Source: a virus. From it: 64,000 bases of DNA. A model generated the notes under the pieces. That model ran no database searches, was not told the origin of the DNA, and worked only from the letters and a program-made list of their open reading frames with translations. Positions 41,489 through 64,000 of this stretch are shown here, piece by piece. Numbering within the stretch: position 1 is the first letter of the stretch; each line of letters opens with the position of its first letter. The stretch is from IMG/VR virus record IMGVR_UViG_3300042988_001700, positions 34,489 through 98,488 of that record; one strand, given 5' to 3'. The translations under genes were made by a program, and so were the position numbers.

Positions 41489-41492
41489 GATA

Positions 41493-42560: not shown

Positions 42561-42625
42561 AAAATTCCTTTCTTGTTGTTGATAAAATATAACTAATGGA
42601 AATTATAAATGCAAGATATTGTTGA

Positions 42626-44342: not shown

Positions 44343-44514
44343 TATCCACCGATAGTTGATTTGACAAAAACACCAATATGCACTTAAAATACATAATTGC
44401 AACACTGTTGTCAACAAAAAAAATACAAACAATATTATTAAAAACAAGCTATATTACGAAAAAGGGGAAGACTGTGCTTCCCCCTACCCAACAAGAGCAA
44501 CGAATAGAATGGCG

Positions 44515-45763: not shown

Positions 45764-48700
45764 TTAATTATTCCTCCCCTTGTATGTTAAATTGTACCAT
45801 GCGTTTGCTCTTCCGAGCTGTCTTAACTCGCGCGGAGCCAGGGAAGCTATAAAGTGGTTCCTGTATTTGTCCGGCAACGCGGCTAAAGGATCTGCGTTTC
45901 GAATGCTTGTGCTTATGCCATCTATCGTACCTCCTGCTTTAAGGTATTCTTTAAGCCAACGTATAGCTGACTTCTGGTCTTTATACACTATCGATTTCTT
46001 ATAATAATATAGTGCATTCGCCTTGTTTGTTGGGTCATTTTGATTGACTTCATACTTGTTGTCGTCAAGGAATTTATAAACCTTTGATTTTATCTCCTGA
46101 TAAGCCGCTTCGCCGGGATCTGTGATATAAACAACGGCAGTCGGAATACTGTTGATAAAACCCTTGCTTGGTTTTCCGGCAAGATACCTATACGGGATAT
46201 CCATAGCCATCGTTCTCGCAACATTCTCCCATGGATCTCGTATCGGGGAAGGATTAAAAACATTCGGGTAAAAAGATTTCTTTGTCAATAACTCAACGGG
46301 AGACTTGATCATTGGCGTCAAAGATGTCCCGATTCTCTGGAATGGGGCAACCGCCGCCTCTTTGATCATATCAGAAAACTTCTTGGAGCCGCTTGCAAGG
46401 TCCGAAACGTCATAGGGCAGGTCTTCTAAGCCTATCCACGAAAGCGCGTCAGAAAGCGCCCCTTGGAATCTTAAGGAGGCAATTGTCCCATCGCTTCTTC
46501 GTGACGTCAAATTTCCGTTCGCCAGCTCTTCGATATTCGGCAATAACAAGTGCGCTTGCCGTCTCCGCTGCATAAGCTCTTCTTTTTCGTCATCCGGGAA
46601 TAATTGATTCCAAAGCATGACCGCTGCATACAGAGCGCCAGCTTTAACCATAAGCATTGCCGAAGAGAATGCGGCGTTCTTCCCAAGAATTGCTGCGCTC
46701 GTAAGACCAAGTTTCGCGGTCCTGGCTGCACGGGTTTTTGAATCACGGTCCCCTTCGTGCGGAGCGTTTTGCATTAGGCGATAGTATCTTGGTGCGTTTA
46801 TTTCAAGCCAGCTATAAAACGGAATTAGGTACCTTCTAAGCCACTGGCCGCCTTTCGATATGTTGCCGTAGTCTCCAATAAGCTCACGCGCCAGCTTTGC
46901 CGCCTTGTCATCTTGGTCTGTGATTTTTTCTATCGCCAGCCTGTTGGATGCGCCGAACGTAGTATCGGGATACTTCTTGAGATGATCGACAAAAAATCTA
47001 TAAGCAGCAAGCCTCAAAATATTTTCTCTCCATTGAGTGAAATTCTTGGTTGTCTGCCAATATCTTTCGATCATACCGACTTTTTCTCCCGAGAGAATCT
47101 TAAGGAACATGTCTTTGTTCAAATCAGTTATCTCGCTAACCGAAAGCCCGGAACTTATTACGCCTTTTTTGATAAGTTTCAACATTTCTTCTGTCGGTGC
47201 TTTCCCCTTAAGATTGTAACCCCAAAGGTCTTTTGCTGCTTTTTGAGCATAGGCCATTATTTTTGGGTCATAAGCCATAGCGATATCCAAATCCCCAGAC
47301 ATATTATTGATATTGTACTTAATAACACTCGGAGGATTGAGAAGTCTCCAAATTTTCCAAGAATTTTGGATTTTTTGAAGTGCTTTCGCTATAAAATTGT
47401 CAATCGGGAAATCAACAACCTTGTCAAGCGTAGCTGCAAGTTCTGACGGCAATGCCCACGATTGGCGTTTTCTCAGGGCAAGCAATGTCTGAAGATCCTG
47501 TTCCTCTACAACCTGGCTCCCATTTTGATCTATTTGAGAAGCAATTTTGTCAGGAATAGTTGTCGCTTCGTACATTCCAAACCCTCTCTTTGGCTGCCAT
47601 TCGACATATCCTTCAGGTAAAATGTCCTGCCATTTCTTAAATTGTGCGCCGGTGGTAGATTTAATCAACTCTTTTCTTTGGCTAATTGCCTTGAATATCA
47701 TTCCGGCGTACTGTGAACCATCAAGCCCCTTGTCCATTAAATAAGAAAGAAATTCCCACCAATCCTCGTCAGATCCGGCAGTGGAATCGACATCCATTTC
47801 AACGCCACTTTTTTTAGAGAAGTATCCGCTTGACAACTTCTCTATAATCAAACTGTATTCTGGTGCATCTATTTCATCCTTTGATGCCATTTTTTCAAGC
47901 TGACTAACAGCAATGGCAATACTTTTTCGATACGGCATAAATGGATCGAACATGTCGTAGTCGGGCGATTTTTCGTCTATTCCGGCTGCCTTTGCCAATC
48001 TCTTCTTTGTAAGTTCATTATTCATTTCAGTAGCATCTTGCTTCAGTTGGCCAGATATATCTGCCACCATTTTCATCTTTTTGAGAGAATCTGCCGCTTC
48101 GAGCAATGCTATTCCTTGGGCAACAACCTCAAATTCAGATTCGGTATATTTCGTGTTGTACGGCTTATCGTATCCAACGCGACCGTTCTGCCAACCTTTT
48201 CTTTTGGTCCTGAAGTCAGAAGAAGTGGTTCCAGTTGTAAGATATTCCTTTGTTTCCATAGCTTCAATAACTTGGTGGTGGAAATATCTATCATCCTTTA
48301 ATACGTCTTCATGCAAGAATTTCTCTCTAACTAAAGATTCCCTCAAGTCCCTCATAAATCGATTTCTTAAATCAAGAGCATTAGAAATATCCGGATTAAG
48401 AGCAGCAAGCCGCATAGCCTCTTTATTATCAGCCTTGACATCGTCAATGCTTTGGTATCCAAACGGAAGCTTCTTTGGTGTTCCGTCAGGAAATGTATAT
48501 AATCCGGATTCGATGTCTTTCAGAAGATCGGGTAGTATTATGTTTCTTTCGAAAACAATCTGCTTTTTAGGACCCATCCCGGCGATAATGCCTTTTACCA
48601 CATTGTATGCACTCGCCTTTGAGAATTCTGGAACAGACTCAAAGTGCCTTAAAATATCTATCTCTCGCGCAAAAACAACCGGGTCAAGAAGAGGATAGTG

Positions 48701-51700
48701 GCGTGTCATATCGTTTTTGGCAGTCGTAATAGCCGCCATTGTTTTAGCGTAAATGGTATTCAGGTTCTTTTGGAGACCACGGGATTCATTCATTATTTTG
48801 TCAACGTTTTCGTCAACCGACTTGAACCCGCCACCTTTGATATTATATTTGGCTCTCGGTTCCCACAATTGAGGGGTATTTTTAATGTTTTTAATTGACT
48901 CACCATTATTAGTGCTCGATCCACGCGCATCTCCAAAACCCAAAACACCAATTTTTCGAGCGCTATCATAAGATCCGTCTTTATAAACATAAACAATGTC
49001 ATGTGTTATATCATATTCCGGTTCAGAAGACGACCGAGTGCTTTTAATTATTCTCGAACCAGTCATAAAAATTTTTCTATCATCGGTTGCAATAACTGCC
49101 CAAGTCCCACCAGATTCTCTTACTCTCTGATAGACTCTGCTTGGAGCTAATTGCTCTATTCCTTTTATTGGATACCAAGCTACAACCATATTTTGATTGT
49201 CTAAAACAAGAAGACTTGTATGGTTTTCTCCCTGAAAAGTATCGCGTGTTAAGTTGGCAACGTCGATAGCCTGTCTTATTTGTGGTCGATTTCTTGTCGC
49301 TTCGTTAAAGTCTTCTTTTGGTATATCAAAACTTATTGTTTGAGCAGTAGGTAATCCTCTGTGATCAATTTCTTCACCAATAAACAAGAATCTGTCATGA
49401 TCAAGAACAACATGCCCAGAAAAACCGGGAATATTATTTATAAAATATTTTGTTATAAACTTGTCGGGATCGCTTGCTTCCATTCTACCTGACGGGTGAT
49501 TATGAACAATGAAATACTTTGTTGCTCCAAGTCTTTCCATTCTATTTTTTATAATGTAATTATTTGCAGAAAGACCAGTTCTGGTTCCTACTACAGAACT
49601 ATTTGTCAAACCAGAAGACATTGCGTTATGCGCAAGAATTTTACCGTTATCATCAGTATAAATAATGTGGAAATGCTCAATTCTTGGATGGCGGAACACA
49701 GAAAACATATTGGCAAGTTCGGTCGCATTATTTATTACCCTGCCGCGAAAATCGATTCTTCTATGTTTCTTCCAATCCCCGCGAACAGTTGTTGCGCCAG
49801 CCTTACCGAGAACAGGAGAAATAGGCGATTTAGAAAATTGGTTTTCTATTTCAGTATTTGCTTTTTCAACTTCCTCTTTCGACCCAAACACTATTTCAGT
49901 ATCATTTTTCGACATCGGGGTTCCAAAATCCAACTCTGTTTGCACACCCCAATCTTTCAAGAACTCCCTTTGTTCGAACAGCGATTGCCCATTATAAACA
50001 ACGTCATTTTTAACGGCGTCATTAATGGCTATCGATTGCTGCGAAACGCCAGTGCCGATATTGATATTCTCAACCTTCAAACCCCACGGCTTTCCGTACT
50101 TTTCGTAAAACTGAGAAATCTTTTTATCATAAAGATTATAAGCCCAATCTCCACCGACACTAAGGCTTTCGCCGTCCAGCCTTGTCCAATCCCTGTATGC
50201 TTTATCTTTTACTTTTGTGCCTTCCGAATTAAATATTCTTTTTGAGATATCTTTTCCAAGAAGACGAGACACCTCTTCAATGCTTAAATCCTCTTTATAA
50301 ATGCCGTCGTTTTCGTCTATGTGTGGTGCATCGATATTATAGGTTTCATCGTCGTTCTTTTCCCAATCGATATATTTTACCTGCTTTTGCAAGTCATATC
50401 TATCTGCTGTCTGCCTTCCAGTTATCCACGAAACTTTGTCGTATCCATTTTCGGATGCGTAACGCAATGCAAATTTGAGAACAACGTCCATCCAGTTATT
50501 TGCGAATGGCATAGGAAGAACACCTGGGCCATAAGACTTTTTGAATTTTTCAATAGCCTCTTCTCGCGTATCTCCAGTTACAAAATCAATACCAGATATA
50601 CCGGCTCTCCACTTATCTCCAGACTGAAACACCCTATCGGGAACTCTATTTGTTGCTGCCACATTCCCTTCGCGCAATTCTTGGGACCATTTTGACTGTA
50701 TTTCCTCAAGGAAGAGAACTTTGTTTCCTTCGCTATCGGTTCTATCGTCCATGCGAATGTGGGCATAAACGTTTTTTCCGAGACCATGTGGTTCATCGTA
50801 TTCAGCAAACATTCCAAATGTGTCTTCTGGCAACGAAAGAGTAACTTCTTTATAATTTTGATATCCCGGCAATGTTAGATCGTCGTATTTGTTGGGGCCA
50901 TATTTCGTTTTTCTTGGTTCATATTTATCGTACCATTCTTGTGCAAATTTTTTTGCAGCATTAACATCAGATTCATTCTGTATAAATTCTTTATTATAAT
51001 AAATAGCAAAAGAATCTTCCAATTGCCCAATCTTTCTGATTTTTATACTCAAATTTGTGTTCGAGTAAATAATAGGGCCACTAAGTTTATTTGGTTCTTC
51101 CCATTCTATTTTTGGTATATCATAATCATTAACGGCTATTTTAGAATCAATCATGTTTCCGCTGATGAATTTAATTATTTCGTCTTTTGTGACCGATTCT
51201 TTTCCTGAAAACTCTTGAGACAATCCAATCCAATCAACCTCCGCTTTTTTTACTCCGGGCTGATTGAGAATCATAGCGACAAGCTGACTTCCAGTTCCCT
51301 TTTCCTGTTTTAAGTCTTGTGCTGCACGGAGTAGGGGAGAATAAAAATAAGGAACGGCAGACCGATACTCTTCGACCGAAGCGTATTTTTTAATCTTTTC
51401 AGGATATTTTGCGGGAAGCTTTTCGCGCATTTTGTTTAGTCTATCACCAACGTCACGCGGATCTCGCGTATAGAACGTTCCAGTCGTAACTGGATCGGAA
51501 AAAGACAAAGCAACAACCCGGTCAGCTATTCCAAGCTGGGGGCCATCAAAATGTATTCCGTATTTGTCGGCTGCTTGCTTTGCCTGTTCAATAAGACCCT
51601 TGTCAAGCTCGCTAAACTTTCCTTCTTCTGAAGCCATCTTTTCTGCGCGGTCTTCTTCGTAATCAACAATATCGCCATAAGGACTTCCCGGCTCGAACAT

Positions 51701-54700
51701 AACACCATTTTGATTCAAGAATCCTTTAATATCCTCTTTCGATACGGTCTCGTCGCCTTTGCTGGAAAGATAATCTGAAAGTCCAGTGAATTTCATTTCA
51801 TCCATTTTTGTTCCGCGACCGCTTGAAGGATCGAGCATCTTGAGCCACTGGCTTGCGGGAGCCTTTGGCATATCGATAGAATTGACTGCTTGCATAGCAT
51901 TGCTATACAATGATTCTCTTGCGCCATAAGAAGCGCCAGGTTCTCTGAACATGTTGGCGGTATCGGTTGAATATTCGCCACTATTATTTGTAGCCGACTT
52001 TATTTGTTTTGGATTAAAAGCAATATAGACATCTGACAACGGGGCACGCTTGGTATCTGTGTAAGTGTCTTTTGTGTTTCTGATTATTATTCCGTCATAA
52101 CCATTTTCTTTTGCAAATTCAATCTGTTCTCTTTGAGCCTTCGGACCCCCGCGCTTTCCCCACTCAACGCCGCCAGCGTCAATAACCATTGGGTTCTTAA
52201 GCGAAAGATATACTCCAAATACACTTGGCTCTGCGTTTTGATAATCAAAAGCCATTTTGTCATTAGCGTATGTTCTGGCAGTATTGTTGTGGTTTGTAAA
52301 AAAATACGCTCTTTCTTTTAATGTATTAGTCTGTCCTTCGGGAGAAAGAGTGTCAAAATATTGTTCTTTAGCGGTTTTAAACACCCCGTTTTGTTTTACG
52401 TCTCTTGCGTCAGGAGTTCCGTGATAAACAACCAGCGGCATGCCTAAATCATCAACGACTTTACTTGCTGTTTCCGAATTTGATTCCCAATCGCCAAACC
52501 ATTTTTTAAACTCTGTTGATTGAATATCTCCGCCATAAGAAGCGCCAGGCTCAAACAGGCTCAACTGTTCTGTTCCGCCAACTATTCCGGCACCACCTTC
52601 GAACATAGGAAGGCCAGTAACGTCTGGCGATCCACCGATACGCTTTTCGTTTTTCTTTCGAATCTCAGCGGCAATAGCTTTTTGAACAGGGGTTCGCTTA
52701 TCCTCAAAACCAGTTCCAGAGAATAAGTCACCGGTTTCGTACTTTGATTTTGGCTCCTCCGTAATTAGATCGTCGTTGACTAACCCTTGATACGGGCTAA
52801 TCATTTTTATCGTTGCGCCAATTTGAGGAAGGCTATCGTCAATGAACTTGTTGACATTGTCCTTTGCCTTATTTGATGATGACGACGGCGCGTCGGTAGC
52901 AGTAAGGTCCTTGACTGCCTTATGGACAAGAATCATTTCTTTGATAGAATTAATTCCAGCTTCGTCTTCGAATGGAATAAACCATTTTTTATTCCAGCTA
53001 CTAATGTATTCGCTAAACGCCCCGTATCTTTTGAGTTCGTCAAGATTAGGAGACCATAAATTTCTAAGCTCAATACGCGGCTGGTTGTGAACGTTAACCG
53101 GCGCTATTTGCCATCCGTTATCAAGCTCAACTATTCCATGGTCGTACTTCACAAGATTAAACAGCTCTACTGCCGACAATTGCGAGAAAGAATTCCCAAT
53201 ACCAAGCCTTAACTTTATACCGGCAATTTGTTTCTGTTTAAGGCTTATGCCAAGATATGTTTCGTTATCTCCAGTTGTTGCCTGAACAACGGTCTGTTTT
53301 TCGTGAGAAGCAAAAGCAGAATCGTTGTCAATTTTTTTAGGATAAATCTTATCGTAAATTGGATAAATAATCCCGGTAAGAATAGTATGCTTTTCCGTTG
53401 TGTATTCAGGAATTTCACTTAGTTCCTTTTCCCAAAGAACCTCCGCGTCTCCGCGATTAACTTCCATGAGACCATGATTAAACTCTTCGTTATCCAGACT
53501 ATGTCTTATTCCCTTTGGATTCGTTAGCTGATATACTTCTTTCTCTATTCCATTTGTAGTAATTTTTACCGTAATAACAGAGTATATTCTTTTGCTTTTA
53601 ACGTTCTGATAATATCCAACCCAATAATCAGTGAAGTCTTGAATATGAGAAACCTCGAACGACAATTTATTGCTTGGAACCTCACCGGCCAAGTATACCA
53701 AGTGCGTTTTTGCCTTCGAAATTGGATCTACATAAATCAATTCGGCAGGCTTGTCTATTCTAAGGTTCTTTGCACGTATCTTTTGAACACCAGAATCGAA
53801 ATTTCCCTTTGCTTTAGCGTTTGCAATATTCTCTTGGTATTTTTCATAAAACTTTTCAAACACTTCATTTTGGCGGCCAATTGGAAGAACGAGTATTCTA
53901 TTAAGAAATTTATCTACAGTTACGTCTTCTTTCGCCTCTCCCTTTTTGTTTAACAAACCCATTTCGGCAAGCGATTTTCTTGAAAGTCCAGTAATGACGC
54001 TTTGTAATGCGTTTTCTCCGTATTCGTCGGTAAGATCCTCTATTGAGAACATTCCACCACCAAGAGACTCTCTGTTCCCGCTGGTCATAGCGCCAAGGCT
54101 GGCAAGCCTACGAGACACTGCATTAACAAGTCTTTCTTGTCCCTTGATATCTGTTTTAACCAGCTTAATAATCGGCGGGACTTCTTGGTTTGATCTATGA
54201 ACCCTACCAAAAACCTGCATCTGAGTGTCTGCCGACCATGATAATTGCATTGCGTAAAATACGCGCTGCTGCTTATTTTCTGCCTTTTTATCGGAATGAA
54301 GCGATATCCCGGTGGATGCCGCTGCCGATATGATTGCTACACGCTTCTTTCCGCTCTGAAACTGCTTAGTTTCGTACTCGTTGACATCCTTCGACGTTCC
54401 ATTCTCGTTTATTCTTCTGACATATTTTTGGTTTTTACCAACACCTTCAAGCCTCATTTTCCTTCCGGATATTTCAGCAATATTATCGGCACCAAAAGCA
54501 TTGACAATCCTATCAAAAGGATTCGGAGGAAGGTTCAAGTTTGAAATAATCTCAAGAAGTCTTTGCTGTTCCTGAAAGTTTTCTCTGTTTATTACCGGTT
54601 CCCCTTGCGCGTCAAGCTCCATAACTGTTTCGTCTTTGCCGGTAACAATGTTCTTTTGTGTTACATATTGATATATCGGAAAACTTGTTTTTACCATGCT

Positions 54701-57700
54701 GGCAATCATGTCTTTTGAACTAAAATCCATGTCGTCAATATCTTCAATTCCACTTGCCTTTGCTGCGGCAACGCTTTTCTTGGTCAGTCCCTCGTTCGTG
54801 CTAAACATGCTGATAACAACTGAGCGCCCTGCCGCAAGCTGTTTTTTTGCGTCATTAACAACCTCGTCATACTGAAGAGAAGTCATTAACTGCAAAAAGA
54901 ATCTCTGTTGAGTAGAATAGAACGCCGTATAATGTCCAGATCCTTTTTTCTTTTTCTCACCCGAATTTTCGGCAGCATTCTCAAACGCAACCAATAACTT
55001 CGACCACAAATCCGCTGCATCATTATATACGTTTCGCTCTCCCTCGGTAACGTTGTGCTGTATTGTCTCAAATTTTACCCCGGCATAGCTAATTGATCTG
55101 CTTATATAAGATCCTATAGCCTTAAGGTCTCTTGTAAGCGCCTCCATTGCGCCAAGCCCACCGCGCGTCATAGCTGTCAGGAAATCCATGAAATCAGTAA
55201 ATGGAGCACCGGCACCCCACATTCCAAGTCTACTTAAATAAGCCATGTTTCGCGCAACCGTAGCAGACGTAGCCGACATATTGAATATGCGTGCGTTCTT
55301 ATACGCTTTTTTAAGCATAAGACCGACATTCCCGCGCTCTGAACCTGCCTTTGAACTTGCCTCTCCGCCGATACCAGCACCAACGGCGTTTTTCATAAAA
55401 TGAGATTCGTCGAAGACAATAACGCCGTCGAAGTCGTCTCCAAGCCAATCTTGTATTTGCTTCAATCTCGCCTGAGTAGAAATTCCATTTTTATCTTTTT
55501 CGCTTCCCGACATAAGTCCGTATGACGTGAAAAGTATTCCGTCTTTATCTGGTAGCTTATCCCATGTTTTTGTATCGGCCTGAGAAATTACTTCCATTGG
55601 AACGCCTACGTCTGAAACGTCTCGTTCTGCCGAAGGCTTTAAATCAAAATTAACACTAATCCAAACTGCACGTTTTCTTCCGTGCATGAAATTATCATAA
55701 ATAACACCTACAGCGGTCCTACCTTTGCCGACCCCTGTAGAATCGCCTAATAAGTACTCCGCGCGTTCGCCACTTAATAATCTTTGGTTGTGTCTTTGCC
55801 CTGCATATACGATAGCCTCCATCTGAACATCAGAAAGCCTTCCCTCTTCGATAACTTCCTTTGGGATCTTTGGGGTATAAACGACATCGGGAGCCTCTGT
55901 CGCGGCAAGCGCCGTAGATTGAACGATGTTTCCCGGGTGTTTTATTGTTCCTTCAATTGTGGCTTTTTTGACAACGTAAGGAGAGTATTGCGAATCTTCC
56001 TCTTGCTCTACGTCCTTTACTCCGCCACTTCCTGGAACGCCGCTCGTTCCGTTGCCTGGCCCCACTGGACTAAGCCCATCGCTAACTGCATCGCCCATGC
56101 GCGCATCGATGATTGGTCTGTCAGTTGATTCAGGACTTCCGCTTTCGCTTGTTCCGGAAATTGCTCCGTTAGGATCTCCAATACCGCCCCGTGTATTCTT
56201 GGATCTTCCACTACCAGATCCCACTCGTCCTGTATCTCCAGAAAGTCCGGTTGTGTCTCGTTCTCCAAGAGAAGATCCATCAGGGGGATTAACGACGTTG
56301 TCTGATTGGCTGCGAAGTTTCTTTTTGTTAGATCGAACATTGCCGCCAGCTTTTCCTTTGCTACTTGATCCAGCTTTTCCGCCAATGCGTTCATTTATGT
56401 CCTCCTCTGCGATATCTTTTAACAGGTCTATAGTTCCTTCAGGCGTTAGTCCTTCAGATCGAACAACATTCGCCATTCTTTCATTTCTATTCATTCCGGG
56501 AGTCGGACCCGTTTTATCGATAATCAATATTTGATTGTCGAATCCGGTCCCGTATTTTGCGTAAGCCTTTCCGTCTATACCGATATTCGCCCGAACGTCG
56601 TTTTTCTGCTCCATCTTATCCCACCACGCACTAAACGATGGTCTTTCATGTGCCATTCCGCGACCAACGATGGCAACTAACCTACCACCATCCCTTACCC
56701 TGAGAAGGGCGTGCGTTACATGGCTTGCGCCAACTTCGGTATTATGGGAAGCTGTTCTTCCTCCGGTAGCAGAGAATGGAGGATTCATTATAACGACATC
56801 GGCCATTATTGTCTGAGGAAGATTGTTGTTCAGCTTTTCGGCGTCAACGCTATACGTTTCGAACCCCTGCATATTCAACAATCCAAGTCTTCTTGGAGAT
56901 ATCTCATTCGCTACAACCTTCGCACCGGCAATGTGCGCCATTGTCGCAATATTCCCTGTCCCGGCGCTTGGTTCTATAACGGTCATGCCTTTTGATACCC
57001 CGGATGCCCAAACAGCTATAAACGCCTCCGCTGGTGGCGTGGAGAACTGTTGGAACTCAATCTGTTCTTCAGTACGGTCAACTTGCCTCGGGATTATATC
57101 ATTAAGATCGTTAAGTCTCTTTACCGTATCTTCTGGGTTGCTGAAATCGACGATTCCAGATTCGAGTATGTATTCATTGATAGCGACTTCAAGAGCGTCA
57201 TACATGTCCCTTGGATCGTATGCGCCATCTCCCCGGGTTCCGCCAAATGAGCTGTCTGCCATTTTTGTCAACTGAGGATTCCCAAATTTTACACCGGTAC
57301 GAAGTTGCTGCTTAATAGTCTCGATCAAAGCACCGGTTCCGGGAACAACGTTTTTATCGTCTACCCGCGAAATAGGAACGTTAATAGGAGGTTGATTTTC
57401 TTTTTTGTCTCCACCTACTTTTGCGTATGTTGGAACGAAATTTTCGTAATCGTAGAATAATGTGCTTCCTTTAAATTTTAATTTCGCCGATCTTCCCGAT
57501 CCTATAACTTCTTCAACCTCTAATACATCAAGTTTGAAAAGAGTAATAGGAATTCCAACGTTCTCTCTTGCTTTCGCCAAGTCTCCAACTTTTGGCGTCC
57601 ACTCTTTAAGCATCGCCTGTGTTCTTGCGATATCTTCTTGAACCAAATCTGGATTTATTTCAACATCGTATGTCTTTTGGAAATCAGCAATACTGACATT

Positions 57701-60700
57701 CCAGTCTTGAATAAACCAATTGTTACCAACTTTATTTTTAACAAAAACCTTTTCGCCGATTACATCTATTCCGGTTAGAATGTATTTGTTCCCGTTAGAA
57801 CGAATAAATTCATCTCCAAATCCAATAGTTTTCTTTTCTTCTTCTTTAGGAACTTCGATTATTTTGTCAACATTTATAGCATGCTCGTTATCAACGGAAT
57901 AATCGTCAATCAATCTGTCTTTTGCCATTTTGGAAAGAACCTTTTCAACATCAGGTTCATCCTTTACGTCAAAGTCCCAAGTTGAACTAACTGAATTCCA
58001 CCTTCTCGGAATACCGTATTTTAAAAGGCCGCTCTTCAACGCTTCAGTAACTTGTTTTCCGGGATATTTCCCAAAAGTTATTCCTCTTAAGTCCAACACA
58101 TTCATGTGTGGATGAATAGTTGCAGATACTCCAACCTTCTTAACTTCTGGTTTTTCTACCTTCTTCTCTTGTTTTGCGACGAAATTTGACAGCAAAACGC
58201 CATTGCGCGGATCTATTCCACCATTAACCTTGTAGTAGGCGTCGTAAGACATCTCGACAACTTTTTGAAAACTTGCTTTAGCGGCTGATTCCGGAATCAT
58301 TTCAGCTATCATTTTTGCGATAGAATCAAAATTTGTCATTCCGCCTTCGATCATATCTGCAACGGCATCGAACGCAAGGTCTTCGTCTTCCTGGGAAGCC
58401 TTTTCGTATGAAGCACCTGGCTCTTTTAATGAATATTCAGCCGGTTCCTCCTGCATCCTATCACCAAGTTTTTTGAATTTCTCCATTGCACGCTTAATAG
58501 ATTCGTTCTGTTCGGGAGAAGCCTCTTTTTCAGTTTTACCATGAGAGGGTTTGGCTACTATTATGTGTTTATCAATGAAATCTTTTTGTGATTCCTTTTC
58601 TGTTTCTTTGCTAAACGGCTTTCTGAGAGTTATCTTTCCTTCCAGAATACCATGTCGTACCCTATCTGATATGTCCTGTTTTAAAAGCCAAGAAGACATT
58701 TCTGGCCAATCTTTTCCAAGATCATCCTTGAGGCGATCAATGTCAATCGGCCTAAGCGTTTCGGGAGAATCGGCCACTAACTGAAGGCGCGACAAATAAT
58801 TCATCTTTGGAAGCGGAAGAAGCGCATCTCTGCTTTTCGTAAGATTGCTTTTGTCTTTTGACGACTGAGCTTCCTCTTCCTGCATTCTCTTTAATTCCGC
58901 ACGAGCTTTTTCTCTTGGGGTAAGTTCTTTTTTGGCTGGTTCTGGTATCTTTGTCAACGATTCGTCTAATTTTGTATTTGTTGACTTTTCAAATTCACCA
59001 ACACTTTTTGCCATGAAAACCCTTGAGACAACCATACCTTTAAGAGATAGGTCAATTGCGTTTATGTTAACAGATCCGTCTTCGCTTACAGAAACGCTCT
59101 CCAGCCTATATTGTCGTCCATTAAAATCAAATTTAGATCCTATAGATATCTCTTGTGGCTTTCTTAAGCTTTCCTCTTGGCTTTTTGTTAGTTTTTTGAG
59201 CTGTTCCGGCCTTACGGTTACGAATGGATCTTTAATGTCGTCGTGAAATTTTACATTTATTACATCGTCTTCGGTTTCATCAGTTGAACGCATAAAGCCA
59301 TAAACAGTTCCAAGTCTCCCCAAATATTGAACCTTGTCTCCTATCGAATACTCTCCAAGAGTAAATTTTTTTACGTCTGGTGCCTTTTTGGTAAAAACTT
59401 TCGACAGGGAATCTTCTTGTTTTTGCTGTTCGGCAGTCGGTTTGTTTTCTGCGGCTTTGTCTTCTTTTTTATTTGAATAAGTTTGTTCTAAATCAAGGTT
59501 TGTTAGTCTGGAAAATTTCTTTTTTGCCCAATCAATCAACTCGACATCCGTAGGATTGTGGGCATCGGTCCAAACCTTTAACATTGTTCTATACGCTGTT
59601 GCGTGTGATCTGTCGTATTCTTTCCCAATTGCATCCGTAATCAACAAATGAACTTCTAGTGAGTGTTGTTGTTTTTTTGCTGATTCTGGGATTTTAGTTA
59701 AAGATTCATCTGTTTTTTTCTTTTCAAACGGTTTGCCGGTAAACAGCGCCTTTGTTCCCTTTAGCGTTCCCGGCAATTTTACACCGGTAATCTCAGTAAA
59801 CAATTTCCTACTATTCTTGTTAGTCAGATGAAGAATATCGCCATACTCGCCAAGAGCAATAGCTTTAAGAACCTTTTTTGCTGCAATCTTTGAAGGCTTT
59901 TCGCGGATTTCTCCACCTGTTTTATCGACAAGCCATTGCGCCCACTTATCAATCTCTGCCTGGTCGGGAACATATTCTTGCTTTGCAACTTCTTCCCCCT
60001 GGGCAATACCCTCTTCTATAGCCTTTTTAGCATTATGAGAGGCATTCTTGTACATCTCTGCTATTTCGTCACGATTTGTAACAGCATCGATAACTAACTG
60101 TCTGAAAGAATCGTAATCCCCGGGAATGAGTTCTTCCGACATTCTGTTTTCTTCTGTCCAGACGCGCTTTCCTTCGTCGGTGGAAAAGTATTCGGTAAGT
60201 CCTTTGAAGTATTTCCTTTGCTCCGGAGACATTCTGCTTTCGCCAAGGTCTTTTATGGCTTGCTGATATTTCTTTCCGGTAACGTCGCCAAGATTAAAAG
60301 CGTCTCTGAACGCAAGATTTAGATCGTACTTATATGCCTCAAAGTTAAGATCGCTTAACTCTTCATCATTAAGATTGTCCGTCTTAAAAGCGGATCTTCC
60401 GGAAGACCGTATTGGTCTATTCCCGGTCGATTTAACGATGGCGGCATCGTCTGTTTTTGCTTCTTTTTGGATTTCTGGCGCAACAGTCGCTTCGCCTTCA
60501 CTTGGGAGGCGTACTCCGGCGTCACCGGCTCCGGTTCGCTGTAATTCATTTTGTACTGTTTCTGTTCCATTCCTTTTTCCTCCTGACCATGTTTGTGAAC
60601 GGCCACTTTCCTTTGCCTTATATAATTGTTCGTCTGCATTAGAAATTCCAATTCCGTGACCAGCCGAAAATGTTACTCCCGTAAGCTTCCCGTCAGCAAA

Positions 60701-63340
60701 TTCCTCCTTTTTAAATTCGTCTCGCAACGAATCAATTCTATTTAAAACTTCGCCTATTGGCTTATCGGTAGTTGGAACTATCGCAAATTCTTCCCCGCCC
60801 CATCGCCCGGCGATATATTCACCATTTGAATTGTCATTTAAAAAATTACCAAGCGACTCAAGAACCTCGTCTCCAACTCCATGACCATAAGTGTCATTTA
60901 CACTTTTGAACTTGTCTACGTCCAAGATTATGACATCTGATTTATCGACGCTTTTGCCTATTTCGTTTGCCTTTGTCTCAAGCCCTCTTCGGTTAAACAT
61001 TCCGGTAAGAGGATCAACTGAAGCTATCTTCTTTTCTTCTTGATGTGCAGCGTGCAGCTTTGCGTATTCTGCGGCAAGCTGATCGGGTGGCAACTGAGAT
61101 ATCTCTTCAGGAGAAAGTATCTTTGTTGGCTCTTTCTGTTCCTGTGCATTAGAACCGGAAGTCGGTTTTTCTATTTGATTTTGAACCGTACTTCCTTCAT
61201 CCATCCACGCCAAAAAGTCATCGTGTGTTTTTTCTGGATTGGCATCCATGTAATCAGTAAAAAGCCCAGCATACTTGTCGTTTATTGCAAGCCTTTCTTC
61301 TGGTGTCGCCGTAGCTATATTTTTTGAAGCATTGGCAACTTCATCGCGACGAGCGGTTAAAAGGTCCGGAGTAGCAGGCCCCGGCTGTGGTGTAGCAGCC
61401 TGTGGTTGTTCTGCCGATTGTCCGACGGCAGAAGGTGGGGCCTGTTCCGGAGTGGTTGGCTTTCCAATAGTAATATTATGTGGAACATCTGGTTTATTTG
61501 CTATGTGTTTTGAAATTCCTCCACCAAGTCCTATAAGTCCCAATATTCCCATTGGACCGGCAGCCCCACCGACTTCTTGGACATAATTTTTAAGCAACTG
61601 CGGAAGAAGCTCTCCAACATCCTTACTCGAAACTCCATCGGTTTGCTTCCCTATTTCAACACCTATGTCCGTTACAAGTCTTTGCATCCCCTCTTCGTTT
61701 ATTTCCTTAAGAAAATCTTTGCCTTTTTCAACAGCAAGTTTTCCGACAACTTTCGCTATACTATCTCCAATTGCTTTTTGTGTTATTTTTCCACCAAGAT
61801 TAGTCAATTGTTTTAATTGTATTTTTTCAATTGCAGCATAGATTATTCCTGTTAATGGAGCAATTTCTCTGGCAGTTTCAAAAGATACCCCGGATTGCAC
61901 CATTTGATCTGAAGCGTCGCCAGCACCCTGGATAGCCCATTGCGATAGCCCAATAGCAGGGCCAACAACAGGAATAGAAGAAATTGCAGCTGTTTGCACC
62001 ATCGGGGGAAGCATTTCAATTGTTTGCAAAATGAGATTTTTAAATGCGCCGTTCTTTTTTGTTTTATCTTCAATTTTAACAGTGTTTTCGTAATCACGCA
62101 TTAATTTTTGCATTTTCAAAAAGGAATCTTTGTCTCCAGCGTAATTATATCCACCCATAGCTTTTTGAATTACAAAAGAAATATCTCCCCTTTCAAAAGC
62201 GTTAGCATATTCATTCCCGCCACTTTCTTTTAATTGGTTTATTCGGCGTTCTATCTTGGGAATTTTTAAAATGATAGGATCAAAAGCTTTGGCACCTTCA
62301 GAGTAAATTTTTTCTTGTTCAGATGAAAATTCAGATATTTTCTTTTGGTCAATTGATTTTTGGAGCCTTGAAAGATTGAAATCAATATCATCCTTAACGC
62401 TGTTTTTGATTTCTGGTATTGAAGAAATCTTTTTCCACCCAACGTTTTCATTCGCCAATTCAGATTTCCTCGAAACAAAATTACCATCAGCATCTTTAAA
62501 ATCATCAATGGAAACGCCGTATTTTTTTAGGTCTTTCTTTAATCCACCGGTAGCGTAATATTCTTCATACCCGCTACGCAACTTACTCGTTTCTTTTTCT
62601 CCATGATAAATTGAAGCAAGTGCCGTTTGTGTTGCAGCCTCAAGCGGATCTTTCTGGCCTTTTGCCACAACCATCTGAAGGACTTCTTTTTGCTGGTCGG
62701 GTGGAACATTTTCAGAAATTAGTTTGGCGTGCTCCGACGACGGGTGTGAAAAAATTTGGTCGGCTGTCTTTTCCAAAGCGTAGGAAGGAGTATCGGTAAC
62801 AGTCTCAACAGGCTTGCTTACTTCTTTTGGCAACTTAACGCTTATATTTTGGGCAGGAGAATAAACTGTTTGTGGCTTTGTTACTTCTTGCGGTACAACT
62901 ATTCCGCGCCCTCCACCGGTTCCCGAAATAAGATCGAAATCACTTGTGTCATAGGTTGGTGGCTTTGGGCGAGAAGCCTCTTGTTGCAACGCCGTTTGTC
63001 CCTTTAGTTGAATATATGGTGAAACAGTCTCCGCTGGTGGCATTGCGCTTTTTTTTGCAATATCCTCTTGCGCACGCATAGCGGCGTCGCTCATTACTTC
63101 CGCTGAAATATTCCATGGATCAACCGGTTCTGGCTGTGGTGCCGGTGCGCTTTGTACGGGAACAGGAGATGGTTTTGAGGGAGGAGCGCTTGCTATTGAA
63201 TCAAGATATGCGAATTCATCGTCATTTATTGAGGCCGAAATTGGCTGTTGAATATTTTGTGTTGTAGGCGGAGTGGCTCCGCTTGCAATAGAATCTAATG
63301 ACGCAAACTCTTCATCGGAGATCGGTGTATTGATTGCCAT
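45764..63340 (-). CDS. giant polyvalent (DarB-like, probably virion-injected) protein, 5858 aa
   Basis: GGDEF (~60590-61020), N6-MTase (EPSAGTG, NPPF 56774-56785), strawberry-notch-type SF2 helicase (GDSTGVGKGR, FDESH, GRVHRSNQ), ART-like (VYHGT...QIKSA), EEIQS domain, JAB/RadC (HNHPSG), helical C-terminal region. Confidence 0.9.
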   Translation of the reverse strand: MAINTPISDEEFASLDSIASGATPPTTQNIQQPISASINDDEFAYLDSIASAPPSKPSPVPVQSAPAPQPEPVDPWNISAEVMSDAAMRAQEDIAKKSAMPPAETVSPYIQLKGQTALQQEASRPKPPTYDTSDFDLISGTGGGRGIVVPQEVTKPQTVYSPAQNISVKLPKEVSKPVETVTDTPSYALEKTADQIFSHPSSEHAKLISENVPPDQQKEVLQMVVAKGQKDPLEAATQTALASIYHGEKETSKLRSGYEEYYATGGLKKDLKKYGVSIDDFKDADGNFVSRKSELANENVGWKKISSIPEIKNSVKDDIDFNLSRLQKSIDQKKISEFSSEQEKIYSEGAKAFDPIILKIPKIERRINQLKESGGNEYANAFERGDISFVIQKAMGGYNYAGDKDSFLKMQKLMRDYENTVKIEDKTKKNGAFKNLILQTIEMLPPMVQTAAISSIPVVGPAIGLSQWAIQGAGDASDQMVQSGVSFETAREIAPLTGIIYAAIEKIQLKQLTNLGGKITQKAIGDSIAKVVGKLAVEKGKDFLKEINEEGMQRLVTDIGVEIGKQTDGVSSKDVGELLPQLLKNYVQEVGGAAGPMGILGLIGLGGGISKHIANKPDVPHNITIGKPTTPEQAPPSAVGQSAEQPQAATPQPGPATPDLLTARRDEVANASKNIATATPEERLAINDKYAGLFTDYMDANPEKTHDDFLAWMDEGSTVQNQIEKPTSGSNAQEQKEPTKILSPEEISQLPPDQLAAEYAKLHAAHQEEKKIASVDPLTGMFNRRGLETKANEIGKSVDKSDVIILDVDKFKSVNDTYGHGVGDEVLESLGNFLNDNSNGEYIAGRWGGEEFAIVPTTDKPIGEVLNRIDSLRDEFKKEEFADGKLTGVTFSAGHGIGISNADEQLYKAKESGRSQTWSGGKRNGTETVQNELQRTGAGDAGVRLPSEGEATVAPEIQKEAKTDDAAIVKSTGNRPIRSSGRSAFKTDNLNDEELSDLNFEAYKYDLNLAFRDAFNLGDVTGKKYQQAIKDLGESRMSPEQRKYFKGLTEYFSTDEGKRVWTEENRMSEELIPGDYDSFRQLVIDAVTNRDEIAEMYKNASHNAKKAIEEGIAQGEEVAKQEYVPDQAEIDKWAQWLVDKTGGEIREKPSKIAAKKVLKAIALGEYGDILHLTNKNSRKLFTEITGVKLPGTLKGTKALFTGKPFEKKKTDESLTKIPESAKKQQHSLEVHLLITDAIGKEYDRSHATAYRTMLKVWTDAHNPTDVELIDWAKKKFSRLTNLDLEQTYSNKKEDKAAENKPTAEQQKQEDSLSKVFTKKAPDVKKFTLGEYSIGDKVQYLGRLGTVYGFMRSTDETEDDVINVKFHDDIKDPFVTVRPEQLKKLTKSQEESLRKPQEISIGSKFDFNGRQYRLESVSVSEDGSVNINAIDLSLKGMVVSRVFMAKSVGEFEKSTNTKLDESLTKIPEPAKKELTPREKARAELKRMQEEEAQSSKDKSNLTKSRDALLPLPKMNYLSRLQLVADSPETLRPIDIDRLKDDLGKDWPEMSSWLLKQDISDRVRHGILEGKITLRKPFSKETEKESQKDFIDKHIIVAKPSHGKTEKEASPEQNESIKRAMEKFKKLGDRMQEEPAEYSLKEPGASYEKASQEDEDLAFDAVADMIEGGMTNFDSIAKMIAEMIPESAAKASFQKVVEMSYDAYYKVNGGIDPRNGVLLSNFVAKQEKKVEKPEVKKVGVSATIHPHMNVLDLRGITFGKYPGKQVTEALKSGLLKYGIPRRWNSVSSTWDFDVKDEPDVEKVLSKMAKDRLIDDYSVDNEHAINVDKIIEVPKEEEKKTIGFGDEFIRSNGNKYILTGIDVIGEKVFVKNKVGNNWFIQDWNVSIADFQKTYDVEINPDLVQEDIARTQAMLKEWTPKVGDLAKARENVGIPITLFKLDVLEVEEVIGSGRSAKLKFKGSTLFYDYENFVPTYAKVGGDKKENQPPINVPISRVDDKNVVPGTGALIETIKQQLRTGVKFGNPQLTKMADSSFGGTRGDGAYDPRDMYDALEVAINEYILESGIVDFSNPEDTVKRLNDLNDIIPRQVDRTEEQIEFQQFSTPPAEAFIAVWASGVSKGMTVIEPSAGTGNIATMAHIAGAKVVANEISPRRLGLLNMQGFETYSVDAEKLNNNLPQTIMADVVIMNPPFSATGGRTASHNTEVGASHVTHALLRVRDGGRLVAIVGRGMAHERPSFSAWWDKMEQKNDVRANIGIDGKAYAKYGTGFDNQILIIDKTGPTPGMNRNERMANVVRSEGLTPEGTIDLLKDIAEEDINERIGGKAGSSSKGKAGGNVRSNKKKLRSQSDNVVNPPDGSSLGERDTTGLSGDTGRVGSGSGRSKNTRGGIGDPNGAISGTSESGSPESTDRPIIDARMGDAVSDGLSPVGPGNGTSGVPGSGGVKDVEQEEDSQYSPYVVKKATIEGTIKHPGNIVQSTALAATEAPDVVYTPKIPKEVIEEGRLSDVQMEAIVYAGQRHNQRLLSGERAEYLLGDSTGVGKGRTAVGVIYDNFMHGRKRAVWISVNFDLKPSAERDVSDVGVPMEVISQADTKTWDKLPDKDGILFTSYGLMSGSEKDKNGISTQARLKQIQDWLGDDFDGVIVFDESHFMKNAVGAGIGGEASSKAGSERGNVGLMLKKAYKNARIFNMSATSATVARNMAYLSRLGMWGAGAPFTDFMDFLTAMTRGGLGAMEALTRDLKAIGSYISRSISYAGVKFETIQHNVTEGERNVYNDAADLWSKLLVAFENAAENSGEKKKKGSGHYTAFYSTQQRFFLQLMTSLQYDEVVNDAKKQLAAGRSVVISMFSTNEGLTKKSVAAAKASGIEDIDDMDFSSKDMIASMVKTSFPIYQYVTQKNIVTGKDETVMELDAQGEPVINRENFQEQQRLLEIISNLNLPPNPFDRIVNAFGADNIAEISGRKMRLEGVGKNQKYVRRINENGTSKDVNEYETKQFQSGKKRVAIISAAASTGISLHSDKKAENKQQRVFYAMQLSWSADTQMQVFGRVHRSNQEVPPIIKLVKTDIKGQERLVNAVSRRLASLGAMTSGNRESLGGGMFSIEDLTDEYGENALQSVITGLSRKSLAEMGLLNKKGEAKEDVTVDKFLNRILVLPIGRQNEVFEKFYEKYQENIANAKAKGNFDSGVQKIRAKNLRIDKPAELIYVDPISKAKTHLVYLAGEVPSNKLSFEVSHIQDFTDYWVGYYQNVKSKRIYSVITVKITTNGIEKEVYQLTNPKGIRHSLDNEEFNHGLMEVNRGDAEVLWEKELSEIPEYTTEKHTILTGIIYPIYDKIYPKKIDNDSAFASHEKQTVVQATTGDNETYLGISLKQKQIAGIKLRLGIGNSFSQLSAVELFNLVKYDHGIVELDNGWQIAPVNVHNQPRIELRNLWSPNLDELKRYGAFSEYISSWNKKWFIPFEDEAGINSIKEMILVHKAVKDLTATDAPSSSSNKAKDNVNKFIDDSLPQIGATIKMISPYQGLVNDDLITEEPKSKYETGDLFSGTGFEDKRTPVQKAIAAEIRKKNEKRIGGSPDVTGLPMFEGGAGIVGGTEQLSLFEPGASYGGDIQSTEFKKWFGDWESNSETASKVVDDLGMPLVVYHGTPDARDVKQNGVFKTAKEQYFDTLSPEGQTNTLKERAYFFTNHNNTARTYANDKMAFDYQNAEPSVFGVYLSLKNPMVIDAGGVEWGKRGGPKAQREQIEFAKENGYDGIIIRNTKDTYTDTKRAPLSDVYIAFNPKQIKSATNNSGEYSTDTANMFREPGASYGARESLYSNAMQAVNSIDMPKAPASQWLKMLDPSSGRGTKMDEMKFTGLSDYLSSKGDETVSKEDIKGFLNQNGVMFEPGSPYGDIVDYEEDRAEKMASEEGKFSELDKGLIEQAKQAADKYGIHFDGPQLGIADRVVALSFSDPVTTGTFYTRDPRDVGDRLNKMREKLPAKYPEKIKKYASVEEYRSAVPYFYSPLLRAAQDLKQEKGTGSQLVAMILNQPGVKKAEVDWIGLSQEFSGKESVTKDEIIKFISGNMIDSKIAVNDYDIPKIEWEEPNKLSGPIIYSNTNLSIKIRKIGQLEDSFAIYYNKEFIQNESDVNAAKKFAQEWYDKYEPRKTKYGPNKYDDLTLPGYQNYKEVTLSLPEDTFGMFAEYDEPHGLGKNVYAHIRMDDRTDSEGNKVLFLEEIQSKWSQELREGNVAATNRVPDRVFQSGDKWRAGISGIDFVTGDTREEAIEKFKKSYGPGVLPMPFANNWMDVVLKFALRYASENGYDKVSWITGRQTADRYDLQKQVKYIDWEKNDDETYNIDAPHIDENDGIYKEDLSIEEVSRLLGKDISKRIFNSEGTKVKDKAYRDWTRLDGESLSVGGDWAYNLYDKKISQFYEKYGKPWGLKVENINIGTGVSQQSIAINDAVKNDVVYNGQSLFEQREFLKDWGVQTELDFGTPMSKNDTEIVFGSKEEVEKANTEIENQFSKSPISPVLGKAGATTVRGDWKKHRRIDFRGRVINNATELANMFSVFRHPRIEHFHIIYTDDNGKILAHNAMSSGLTNSSVVGTRTGLSANNYIIKNRMERLGATKYFIVHNHPSGRMEASDPDKFITKYFINNIPGFSGHVVLDHDRFLFIGEEIDHRGLPTAQTISFDIPKEDFNEATRNRPQIRQAIDVANLTRDTFQGENHTSLLVLDNQNMVVAWYPIKGIEQLAPSRVYQRVRESGGTWAVIATDDRKIFMTGSRIIKSTRSSSEPEYDITHDIVYVYKDGSYDSARKIGVLGFGDARGSSTNNGESIKNIKNTPQLWEPRAKYNIKGGGFKSVDENVDKIMNESRGLQKNLNTIYAKTMAAITTAKNDMTRHYPLLDPVVFAREIDILRHFESVPEFSKASAYNVVKGIIAGMGPKKQIVFERNIILPDLLKDIESGLYTFPDGTPKKLPFGYQSIDDVKADNKEAMRLAALNPDISNALDLRNRFMRDLRESLVREKFLHEDVLKDDRYFHHQVIEAMETKEYLTTGTTSSDFRTKRKGWQNGRVGYDKPYNTKYTESEFEVVAQGIALLEAADSLKKMKMVADISGQLKQDATEMNNELTKKRLAKAAGIDEKSPDYDMFDPFMPYRKSIAIAVSQLEKMASKDEIDAPEYSLIIEKLSSGYFSKKSGVEMDVDSTAGSDEDWWEFLSYLMDKGLDGSQYAGMIFKAISQRKELIKSTTGAQFKKWQDILPEGYVEWQPKRGFGMYEATTIPDKIASQIDQNGSQVVEEQDLQTLLALRKRQSWALPSELAATLDKVVDFPIDNFIAKALQKIQNSWKIWRLLNPPSVIKYNINNMSGDLDIAMAYDPKIMAYAQKAAKDLWGYNLKGKAPTEEMLKLIKKGVISSGLSVSEITDLNKDMFLKILSGEKVGMIERYWQTTKNFTQWRENILRLAAYRFFVDHLKKYPDTTFGASNRLAIEKITDQDDKAAKLARELIGDYGNISKGGQWLRRYLIPFYSWLEINAPRYYRLMQNAPHEGDRDSKTRAARTAKLGLTSAAILGKNAAFSSAMLMVKAGALYAAVMLWNQLFPDDEKEELMQRRRQAHLLLPNIEELANGNLTSRRSDGTIASLRFQGALSDALSWIGLEDLPYDVSDLASGSKKFSDMIKEAAVAPFQRIGTSLTPMIKSPVELLTKKSFYPNVFNPSPIRDPWENVARTMAMDIPYRYLAGKPSKGFINSIPTAVVYITDPGEAAYQEIKSKVYKFLDDNKYEVNQNDPTNKANALYYYKKSIVYKDQKSAIRWLKEYLKAGGTIDGISTSIRNADPLAALPDKYRNHFIASLAPRELRQLGRANAWYNLTYKGRNN

Positions 63341-63367: not shown

Positions 63368-64000
63368 CTAATTACCAAATTTCCTTGCGATATACGCATC
63401 AATCTTATCTTGAGGAGTTCCCCTTGCTCTTAAATTAGCTATTGCCGCTTCTTTAGCGATATTATTTTGTTGAATTGGTGCCGGTTTATTTTGTTGCGCT
63501 TGGATAGTTGCCATTTTTTCTGAGGCGGTTTTAAATGCTCCGGATATTTTTTGGCCCAAAGTTGGCTTTGCGGGTGGAGGAGGAGGAATCGGTTTTACCA
63601 TGTTGACATCGCCGCCAAGTGACTTAATCGCAGTGGATATAGCTTCATCATCATACCCTTGAAGCCATGGATATGAAGGGCTTTTTGTTAAAAGCCCATT
63701 AACGCCATCGTAACTTGAGATATCAACACCATCATTTCTGATTTTTTCAGCTATTTCTGATGCCTGCTTTGATATGTTTTGATCAACAATTTTCGGTGCC
63801 ATTCTAAATGTTTCAGAATATGGAATATTGGTGTTTTCTGCGGCAATTCTTTCTGCGGCGGCACTCTCTTTTGCTCTTCTTAAAGCATTAACGTATTCGT
63901 CGTTCGTTTGTCCCTTTATGGCTGTTAGGTTCTCTAACGTTATATCTGCATCAGTAAGTCCTTCTGCAATCAACTGCCCTTTAAGAATGTCTCCTATGGC
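63368..64000 (-). CDS. C-terminal part of a hypothetical (internal virion?) protein
   Basis: frame is open to the window edge; directly upstream of the giant gene. Confidence 0.6.
   Translation of the reverse strand, partial: AIGDILKGQLIAEGLTDADITLENLTAIKGQTNDEYVNALRRAKESAAAERIAAENTNIPYSETFRMAPKIVDQNISKQASEIAEKIRNDGVDISSYDGVNGLLTKSPSYPWLQGYDDEAISTAIKSLGGDVNMVKPIPPPPPAKPTLGQKISGAFKTASEKMATIQAQQNKPAPIQQNNIAKEAAIANLRARGTPQDKIDAYIARKFGN

Follow-up and report, generated by a model that had tools for sequence, protein, structure and literature searches.

Does a phage carry a working synthase of the bacterial second messenger cyclic di-GMP (c-di-GMP) inside a giant protein, and, if so, could this enzyme reach the host together with the phage DNA? 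This question is raised by the last 64 kb of the 98,488-bp IMG/VR virus record IMGVR_UViG_3300042988_001700 (this stretch, positions 34,489 to 98,488 of the record, is called the window here), in which a single open reading frame (ORF) of 5,858 amino acids (aa) harbors a GGDEF domain, the domain of diguanylate cyclases. A reading of the sequence without any database search (the sequence-only reading) had proposed that this domain is an intact cyclase devoid of the inhibitory I-site, that it belongs to a giant polyvalent protein comparable to DarB of phage P1 and that the phage may deliver it at infection. Our analysis argues for the enzymatic part of this proposal and makes the delivery part plausible. 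The features that carry the enzymatic part are listed below, with residues numbered along the 5,858-aa protein:

45764..63340, minus strand: polyvalent protein ORF, 5,858 aa (P0001; ORF translation)
60596..61024, minus strand: GGDEF diguanylate-cyclase domain, residues 773-915 (Pfam PF00990, PDB sequence matches, Foldseek)
60986-61015, minus strand: DPLTGMFNRR, residues 776-785
60869-60925, minus strand: LDVDKFKSVNDTYGHGVGD, residues 806-824
60815..60826, minus strand: NGEY in place of the RxxD primary I-site
60785-60808, minus strand: GRWGGEEF, residues 845-852
60785..60799, minus strand: A-site motif GGEEF, residues 848-852
residues 890-894, minus strand: TFSAG
60599-60637, minus strand: ADEQLYKAKESGR, residues 902-914
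61019..61087, minus strand: stalk-like helix before the domain, residues ~752-774 (AlphaFold2 model m774228b6cb8b)

All five GGDEF motifs quoted in the sequence-only reading are found in one minus-strand frame of this ORF and in the canonical order, and the interval given there, 60590-61020, agrees with the domain boundaries within a few bases. The Pfam search suggested as a check was positive: PF00990 covers residues 773-915 and profile positions 1-160 of 161 with 93.8 bits against a cut-off of 23.8 bits (E 1.2e-26), a six-frame search of the genome gave 100.4 bits for the same domain, and the match is far beyond chance. Among the PDB sequences, phmmer recovered 37 diguanylate cyclases (E<=1e-10), led by the phytochrome-linked IsPadC (5llw, E 3e-22), with DgcR, PleD, WspR, DgcZ and DosC also among the matches. 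When the phage domain is aligned with small cellular GGDEF proteins (41 sequences), it keeps 26 of the 26 invariant columns. The A-site (R846-W-GGEEF, with GGEEF at 848-852) and the residues D807, D809 and K812 are present and invariant in both of our alignments, A1 and A2. As far as the GGEEF strand the motifs are spaced as in PleD, at an unchanging offset of 480, and beyond it the domain is 12 residues shorter; in the register that we take to relate the two proteins, D807 corresponds to D327 of PleD, K812 to K332, N815 to N335, H820 to H340, D824 to D344, R846 to R366, E850/E851 to E370/E371, K910 to K442 and R914 to R446. The guanine-recognizing positions N815 and D824 as well as the C-terminal K910 and R914 are thus in register with PleD. 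An aspartate at the position of PleD residue 344 marks the guanine-specific state, and the cGAMP-making Hypr GGDEF domains have a serine there. The phage domain has an aspartate, D824, and not the Hypr serine, which argues for guanine specificity.

The structure modeled by AlphaFold2 with the 41-sequence alignment has the GGDEF fold with its palm-like beta-alpha-alpha-beta-beta-alpha-beta core (predicted local distance difference test score, pLDDT, 86.7, with the core above 95). Foldseek found 107 matches to it in the PDB at E<=0.001; all among the best ~40 of these 107 are GGDEF-domain proteins, and those at the top are active cyclases with a stalk helix: DgcR (6zxb), IsPadC (6et7/5llw), GCN4-WspR (3i5c) and DgcB (6ttr). 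The helical segment that had been noticed before the domain appears in the model as a 23-residue helix leading directly into the DxLT motif, and the Foldseek alignments (180-189 columns) take in the stalk helices of DgcR, IsPadC, GCN4-WspR and DgcB. The description of the domain as intact and canonical is therefore borne out by a full-length PF00990 match in which all catalytic and guanine-binding positions are kept. Judged by sequence and model, residues 773-915 would form a catalytically competent diguanylate cyclase, predicted to convert two GTP into c-di-GMP and two pyrophosphates (PPi).

The loss of the I-site was also read correctly: NGEY occupies residues 839-842, exactly five residues ahead of GGEEF, the place expected for RxxD. 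A search limited to proteins of 3,221-10,252 aa with the module gave three other giants with a GGDEF domain, and an exhaustive phmmer search of 1.84 billion representatives added further relatives. Altogether 11 representatives carry the same type of GGDEF (the window protein P0001 and P0126, P0003, P0129, P0143, P0147, P0155, P0178, P0004, P0180 and P0019). Their lengths are 1,661-5,858 aa, where the shorter members may be cut at contig ends, and their GGDEF domains lie between residues ~440 and ~1,190. By their Pfam domains (ART-PolyVal, LPD1, LPD5, LPD38, PBECR5, SNF2, SLT) the ten relatives are polyvalent proteins as well. RxxD is absent in all 11 (NGEY, SGSA, FRGE, DGLA, GADA, DGVA, GNEA, GADA, GNDA, EGKA and AGAA are found instead), whereas, of the 122 nearest GGDEF matches having the GG[DE]EF motif (four of them polyvalent), 82 carry it. 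Every representative also shares the signature F-[ADG]-[DNG]-G-(K)-L-[TK]-G-x-x-[FL]-S-x-G and a C-terminal part that is short by ~12 residues. In a tree of 124 GGDEF domains, which took in only four of the 11 representatives, the four polyvalent members form one clade (Shimodaira-Hasegawa-like approximate likelihood ratio test, SH-aLRT, 98); a fifth giant, P0005 (CHAP and amidase), has RDSD and falls outside this clade. Therefore, the loss of the I-site is ancestral and conserved in the polyvalent GGDEF lineage rather than a quirk of this phage. The catalytic residues are kept in 11 of 11 despite an identity of 20-50%, which indicates purifying selection on catalysis; GGEEF itself is replaced by GGEEI in three clade members.

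Another indication of catalysis comes from what stands beside the domain. Five of the ten relatives have an inorganic pyrophosphatase of the polyvalent type (InPase, PF18823) within 82-330 residues of the GGDEF domain, in two orders: it follows GGDEF by 82-127 residues in P0019 and P0180, and it precedes GGDEF by ~290-330 residues in P0143 and P0147 and, by homology, in P0155. Each molecule of c-di-GMP that is made releases two PPi. The adjacency of the two domains in two different orders argues for functional coupling and for real catalysis, and the arrangement suggests that PPi removal may be coupled to c-di-GMP synthesis. A general suggestion that the InPase of polyvalent proteins might clear PPi for nucleotidyltransferases was made by Iyer, Burroughs, Anand, de Souza and Aravind (Iyer et al., 2017, J Bacteriol; PMC5512222); we found no statement on the specific pairing of GGDEF with InPase in that paper.

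The second half of the question, how such an enzyme would come into contact with the host, depends on the protein in which it is embedded. The placement of the domain in a giant phage polyvalent protein was rightly recognized, as the same polypeptide has a methylase-helicase dyad, an ADP-ribosyltransferase (ART) and a RadC/JAB domain:

60572..61261, minus strand: module of linker, helix and GGDEF, residues 694-923, a common block with the 3,390-aa polyvalent protein P0003 (43% identity)
61361..62314, minus strand: N-terminal all-helical conserved cassette, residues ~343-660 (BLASTP to P0019, P0180, P0147, P0143, P0155 and P0004)
56654..56980, minus strand: adenine-methylase-like domain, residues ~2121-2229 (Pfam MTS, 16.1 bits, below the cut-off; VVIMNPPF, with the NPPF motif, is visible)
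53783..55942, minus strand: superfamily 2 (SF2) helicase (Pfam AAA_34, residues 2467-2773, E 8.2e-102; Helicase_C_4, residues 2940-3186, E 1.1e-67)
51974..52453, minus strand: ART-PolyVal ADP-ribosyltransferase, residues 3630-3789 (Pfam PF18760, 69 bits)
49439..49729, minus strand: RadC-like JAB domain, residues 4538-4634 (Pfam PF04002, 42.2 bits)

Several unrelated enzymatic domains in one polypeptide, including the family-specific ART-PolyVal (PF18760), and an encoding element with a portal-terminase packaging system qualify this protein as a phage-type polyvalent one by the definition of Iyer et al. (2017). The methylase-like region also matches the methylase of P1 DarB, weakly and collinearly. 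The remaining ~3,500 residues gave no significant match to Pfam or PHROGs even at E<=5 (a match to ArdA, E 0.089, is not significant), and the C-terminal 1,229 aa are LPD38-like according to an Atlas look-alike search (score 0.91, 149 shared features), which we take as a lead only. An alternative start of the ORF would give a protein of 5,670 aa (P0002). An EPGASY-like motif (EPAEY, EPGASY three times, EPGSPY, EPRAKY), found by regular expression, repeats at domain borders at residues 1632, 1640, 3597, 3800, 3883 and 4827 (window ~48845-58447, minus strand), with two copies bracketing the ART domain. The motif may mark sites of processing or be characteristic of linkers; a cut at residue 1640 would leave the GGDEF domain in an N-terminal fragment of ~1,640 aa.

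The surroundings of the GGDEF domain within the chain are conserved too. Low-complexity linkers flank it in the N-terminal third of the protein (residues ~606-761 and ~900-975), and the block of residues 694-923 can be described as a mobile module. The cassette that precedes it has two Gly-rich, by hydropathy moderately hydrophobic segments at residues 447-465 and 591-609, MVQTAAISSIPVVGPAIGL and GGAAGPMGILGLIGLGGGI, and AlphaFold2 predicts it as all-alpha with low confidence (pLDDT 55). A homolog search with the cassette returned only the protein itself, the word filter being too coarse at ~30% identity. Taken together with the BLASTP matches, this places GGDEF in a conserved N-terminal cassette, after which a variable set of effector domains follows.

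The position of the gene is the next piece of evidence. On the circular map the order of transcription is terminase, portal, capsid, glycosyltransferases, proteins of 2,562 and 1,040 aa, then those of 357 and ~476 aa, the polyvalent protein, and proteins of 137 and 277 aa, followed by a gap and by the exonuclease/Erf/DnaB module. Over the stretch bounded by the 2,562-aa and 277-aa genes all gaps are of 87 nt or less and the strand is the same, and the sole real intergenic gap in the region is at window positions 44383-44515:

63368..64000, minus strand: 3' part of the upstream ORF (~476 aa in all), which spans the terminal-repeat junction
44466..44523, minus strand: pair of hairpins downstream of the 277-aa gene; sequence of the second one, GGGGGAAG-cacagt-CTTCCCC and then TTTTT
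44386..44414, minus strand: promoter-like site TTGACA-17-TATTTT in an AT-rich stretch, preceding the exonuclease/Erf/DnaB module
37562-43618: exonuclease, Erf-type annealing protein, replication initiator and DnaB (PHROGs)

The second hairpin looks like an intrinsic terminator that would end the transcription unit of the polyvalent protein, and the gap, by its position, may mark where a long late transcription unit ends and a recombination/replication unit begins. The ~476-aa ORF ends 27 nt before the start codon of the polyvalent gene. The 201/210-aa ORF at the end of the window and the 308-aa ORF at the start of the genome (positions 128-925) are one gene: it starts at genome position 925 and passes the terminal repeat in frame (798 nt and 633 nt), and it is split because the record was linearized at the 127-bp terminal repeat.

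Based on these results, we lean modestly towards a working model in which a feedback-free cyclase is made late, packaged, injected and, upon dimerization, raises c-di-GMP. The observed part of this model comprises the domain identity, the integrity of the motifs, the fold, the clade membership and the operon position. The giant protein would be made late and packed into the capsid, from which it would enter the cell with the DNA; there at least two copies would pair their GGDEF domains via the preceding helix and/or the N-terminal helical cassette, and c-di-GMP would be raised without a feedback limit in the newly infected cell, acting on the c-di-GMP receptors of the host. Catalysis, dimerization, packaging with ejection, and every physiological consequence are what we infer. 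That the copies would associate by way of the conserved N-terminal cassette is a guess. The gene position, SLT and LPD38 in the relatives, the gene length and the precedent of packaged proteins of the polyvalent type (Iyer et al., 2017; PMC5512222) make it plausible that the protein is delivered with the virion. The length matters since a 17.6-kb gene would be too slow for an early counter-measure, which is the usual argument for pre-packaging.

Several results weigh against this model. GGDEF catalysis needs two domains, and the structure was predicted for a single chain; the helix of residues 752-774 is short and shows a weak heptad pattern by heptad count; and the deletion of ~12 residues relative to PleD between the TFSAG strand and the last helix is a structural peculiarity, the sole one of the domain. 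With the profile hidden Markov model (HMM) built from four relatives, no divergent pyrophosphatase domain was found in the window protein or in the genome, unlike in half of the relatives. Neither MuF nor a portal fusion nor another head-targeting domain was detected in the protein by Pfam and PHROGs. The numbers of promoters and terminators in the region do not exceed the shuffled expectation, and it is only the placement of these sites in the single intergenic gap that is suggestive. The large proteins encoded upstream have no significant structural annotation (there is a sub-threshold match to Tailspike_C only), and therefore it is by position that we speak of a late operon; the Atlas look-alike search with the 1,040-aa protein gave nothing.

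One could argue that the cyclase is active but is not brought in by the virion: it would be produced within the cell after infection, as the first unit ahead of the replication genes or over the whole course of the infection, and the rise of c-di-GMP during the latent period would serve, for instance, to exclude superinfecting phages or to keep the cell sessile. The missing packaging domain fits this alternative, and so does the location of the gene, which immediately precedes the exonuclease/Erf/DnaB module and shares its strand. Phages do have stand-alone and presumably non-packaged GGDEF genes, such as those of SP-15 (183 aa, among glycosyltransferases), phage G (gp350) and Bordetella phage CN1, and a lytic Pseudomonas phage raises the c-di-GMP of its host from within by the YIP peptide (PMC8085984). 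However, a terminator-like hairpin and a promoter-like site separate the polyvalent gene from the replication genes, the relatives have SLT and LPD38, which are typical of delivered phage proteins, and the methylase-helicase dyad and ART-PolyVal belong to families argued to act at entry (Iyer et al., 2017; PMC5512222). Thus we consider expression after entry unlikely, and it is the strongest of the competitors that injection of the packaged cyclase has to face.

Much less probable is an effect on host immunity, in which the product of the domain, or the molecule it competes with, is not housekeeping c-di-GMP but another nucleotide, so that the receptors of cyclic-oligonucleotide-based antiphage signaling systems (CBASS), STING or Panoptes-like systems are saturated or decoyed, or GTP is depleted. 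Some defence systems do use GGDEF-related cyclases and decoy dinucleotides (PMC12657218), and the domains that reside in the same protein are of counter-defence types. Nevertheless, the positions for base recognition hold the canonical guanine pair N815 and D824 with no Hypr-type serine at PleD position 344, the domain scores as an ordinary GGDEF and not as mCpol or a Cas10 palm, and neither a CBASS-type partner nor a cyclic-nucleotide nuclease was seen in the phage. Equally small is the chance that the domain is catalytically silent, that is, a monomeric GTP-binding, sensing or structural module inside a 650-kDa protein: the need of two GGDEF domains with no dimerizer evident, the trimmed C-terminal part and the GGEEI of three clade members speak for it, but the polyvalent clade shows no variation in any catalytic residue, a pyrophosphatase domain is nearby in half of the relatives, and degenerate GGDEF domains normally lose the GGDEF or the metal-binding residues.

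If the injected cyclase is accepted as the working model, its consequences can be considered by analogy. The effects put forward in the sequence-only reading, on pili and biofilm, on defence or through a drain on GTP, are speculation. PB1-like Pseudomonas phages increase c-di-GMP with the YIP peptide, which binds to YfiN, a cyclase of the host (PMC8085984). In Pseudomonas aeruginosa, c-di-GMP induces PlzR, by which type IV pilus assembly and, consequently, the adsorption of pilus-dependent phages are blocked (PMC11461919); superinfection exclusion would therefore be a reasonable consequence in our case as well. The use of c-di-GMP by the phage itself was considered and rejected: the phage has no c-di-GMP riboswitch by Rfam and no PilZ, EAL or HD-GYP domain. 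A more far-reaching version, in which a dedicated polyvalent lineage has fixed the feedback-free cyclase in the N-terminal cassette, often with a pyrophosphatase nearby, and the ejected cassette self-associates, perhaps at the membrane, to produce a burst of c-di-GMP at time zero, is tentative, and we hold it to be possible rather than probable. If this version were true, an injected second-messenger synthase would reset the surface and behavior of the host, or its immunity, ahead of all phage gene expression. The injection of a preformed and unregulated c-di-GMP synthase would, if demonstrated, mean a viral takeover of bacterial second-messenger signaling at entry and would bear on superinfection exclusion, on the biofilm behavior of infected cells and on cyclic-nucleotide immunity.

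The genome that encodes this protein is a complete 98-kb phage with a large terminase (TerL), a portal and a major capsid protein. The record has 127-bp terminal repeats, a CheckV completeness of 100% and 42% G+C; the portal and the major head protein (PHROGs) are both encoded upstream of the window, and the genes identified by PHROGs are nearly all on the minus strand. One further landmark lies within the window:

7689-11834, minus strand: large terminase, apparently intein-bearing (PHROGs)

The TerL profile matches this 1,381-aa protein in separate pieces, and a 553-aa ORF (26305-27966, minus strand) combines thymidylate-synthase and HNH-endonuclease matches; both genes look like carriers of intein or homing-endonuclease insertions. 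ARAGORN places a tRNA-Thr (AGT) at 23007-23079 on the minus strand, and Rfam gave no tRNA match at this place, with either the gathering threshold or E<=1; the assignment is doubtful. A megablast search of 24 kb against phages and a tblastn search with the portal each gave zero matches, and the matches of DnaB were generic only, so that we consider this a phage without close cultured relatives and do not assign a host. The search for related loci with the GGDEF module alone found none among viral contigs, and the search of genome contigs with alignment A2, which is a generic GGDEF motif pattern, returned ordinary cellular GGDEF genes at 80 of 80 loci and yielded neither prophage relatives nor a clue to the host.

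The idea of an injected cyclase is not new, as it has existed as a computational prediction since 2017 (PMC5512222). Iyer et al. listed GGDEF among the domains of polyvalent proteins, proposed interference with host nucleotide signaling and predicted delivery at invasion; their prophage protein from Acetonema longum (WP_004096050.1) combines GGDEF, SNF2, an adenine methylase, a zincin metallopeptidase (MPTase) and ART (PMC5512222). The window protein resembles the GGDEF polyvalent proteins of that survey in having GGDEF, a DNA adenine methylase, an SF2 helicase and ART in one giant polypeptide of a portal-terminase element. It differs from them, as far as the Acetonema protein can be compared by its description only, in lacking the zincin MPTase and in possessing RadC/JAB, and with 5,858 aa it is among the longest polyvalent proteins. 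In the 2017 survey RadC/JAB domains of polyvalent proteins were confined to conjugative elements (PMC5512222); here such a domain (49439-49729, minus strand) is present in a phage-type polyvalent protein.

The analogy with P1 DarB, a virion-packaged antirestriction methylase-helicase and an experimental precedent for the packaging of a very large protein, holds only for the architecture, namely the methylase-then-helicase order: the collinear segments of a pairwise BLASTP are marginal (methylase E 0.006, C-terminal part of the helicase E 0.002) and tblastn against phages at 1e-5 did not recover P1. Unlike the window protein, DarB has no GGDEF domain. With the cellular stalk-helix cyclases PleD (1w25/2v0n), WspR (3bre/3i5c), DgcR (6zxb) and IsPadC (5llw) the phage domain shares the fold, the catalytic and guanine-binding residues and the helix running into DxLT. 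In contrast to these enzymes, it has neither a sensory nor a receiver domain and no RxxD, is ~12 residues shorter before the last helix and is embedded between low-complexity linkers of a 650-kDa protein. Phage-encoded GGDEF folds are also known from Bacillus phage SP-15 (gp150), phage G (gp350) and Bordetella phage CN1, which differ in being small single-domain proteins of metabolic or glycosylation gene clusters. The records among the GGDEF matches that are named "Bacteriophage sp." (faecal contigs) or "Listeria/Salmonella phage" (fragmentary) are unverified and unannotated and were not used as evidence.

Our searches of the full-text literature found no experimental study of a phage-encoded diguanylate cyclase, the only phrase match being the YIP peptide. 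There, a lytic phage was shown by experiment to raise the c-di-GMP of its host; the difference is that YIP is a small peptide binding the host YfiN and that the phage brings no cyclase of its own (PMC8085984). Therefore, the protein described here is a real but ordinary further example of a computationally catalogued design, to which we make modest additions: the loss of the I-site throughout a clade, the adjacency of InPase, the N-terminal cassette, the operon boundary and RadC in a phage-type polyvalent protein. The first two of these sharpen the enzymatic part of the 2017 prediction and make it easy to test.

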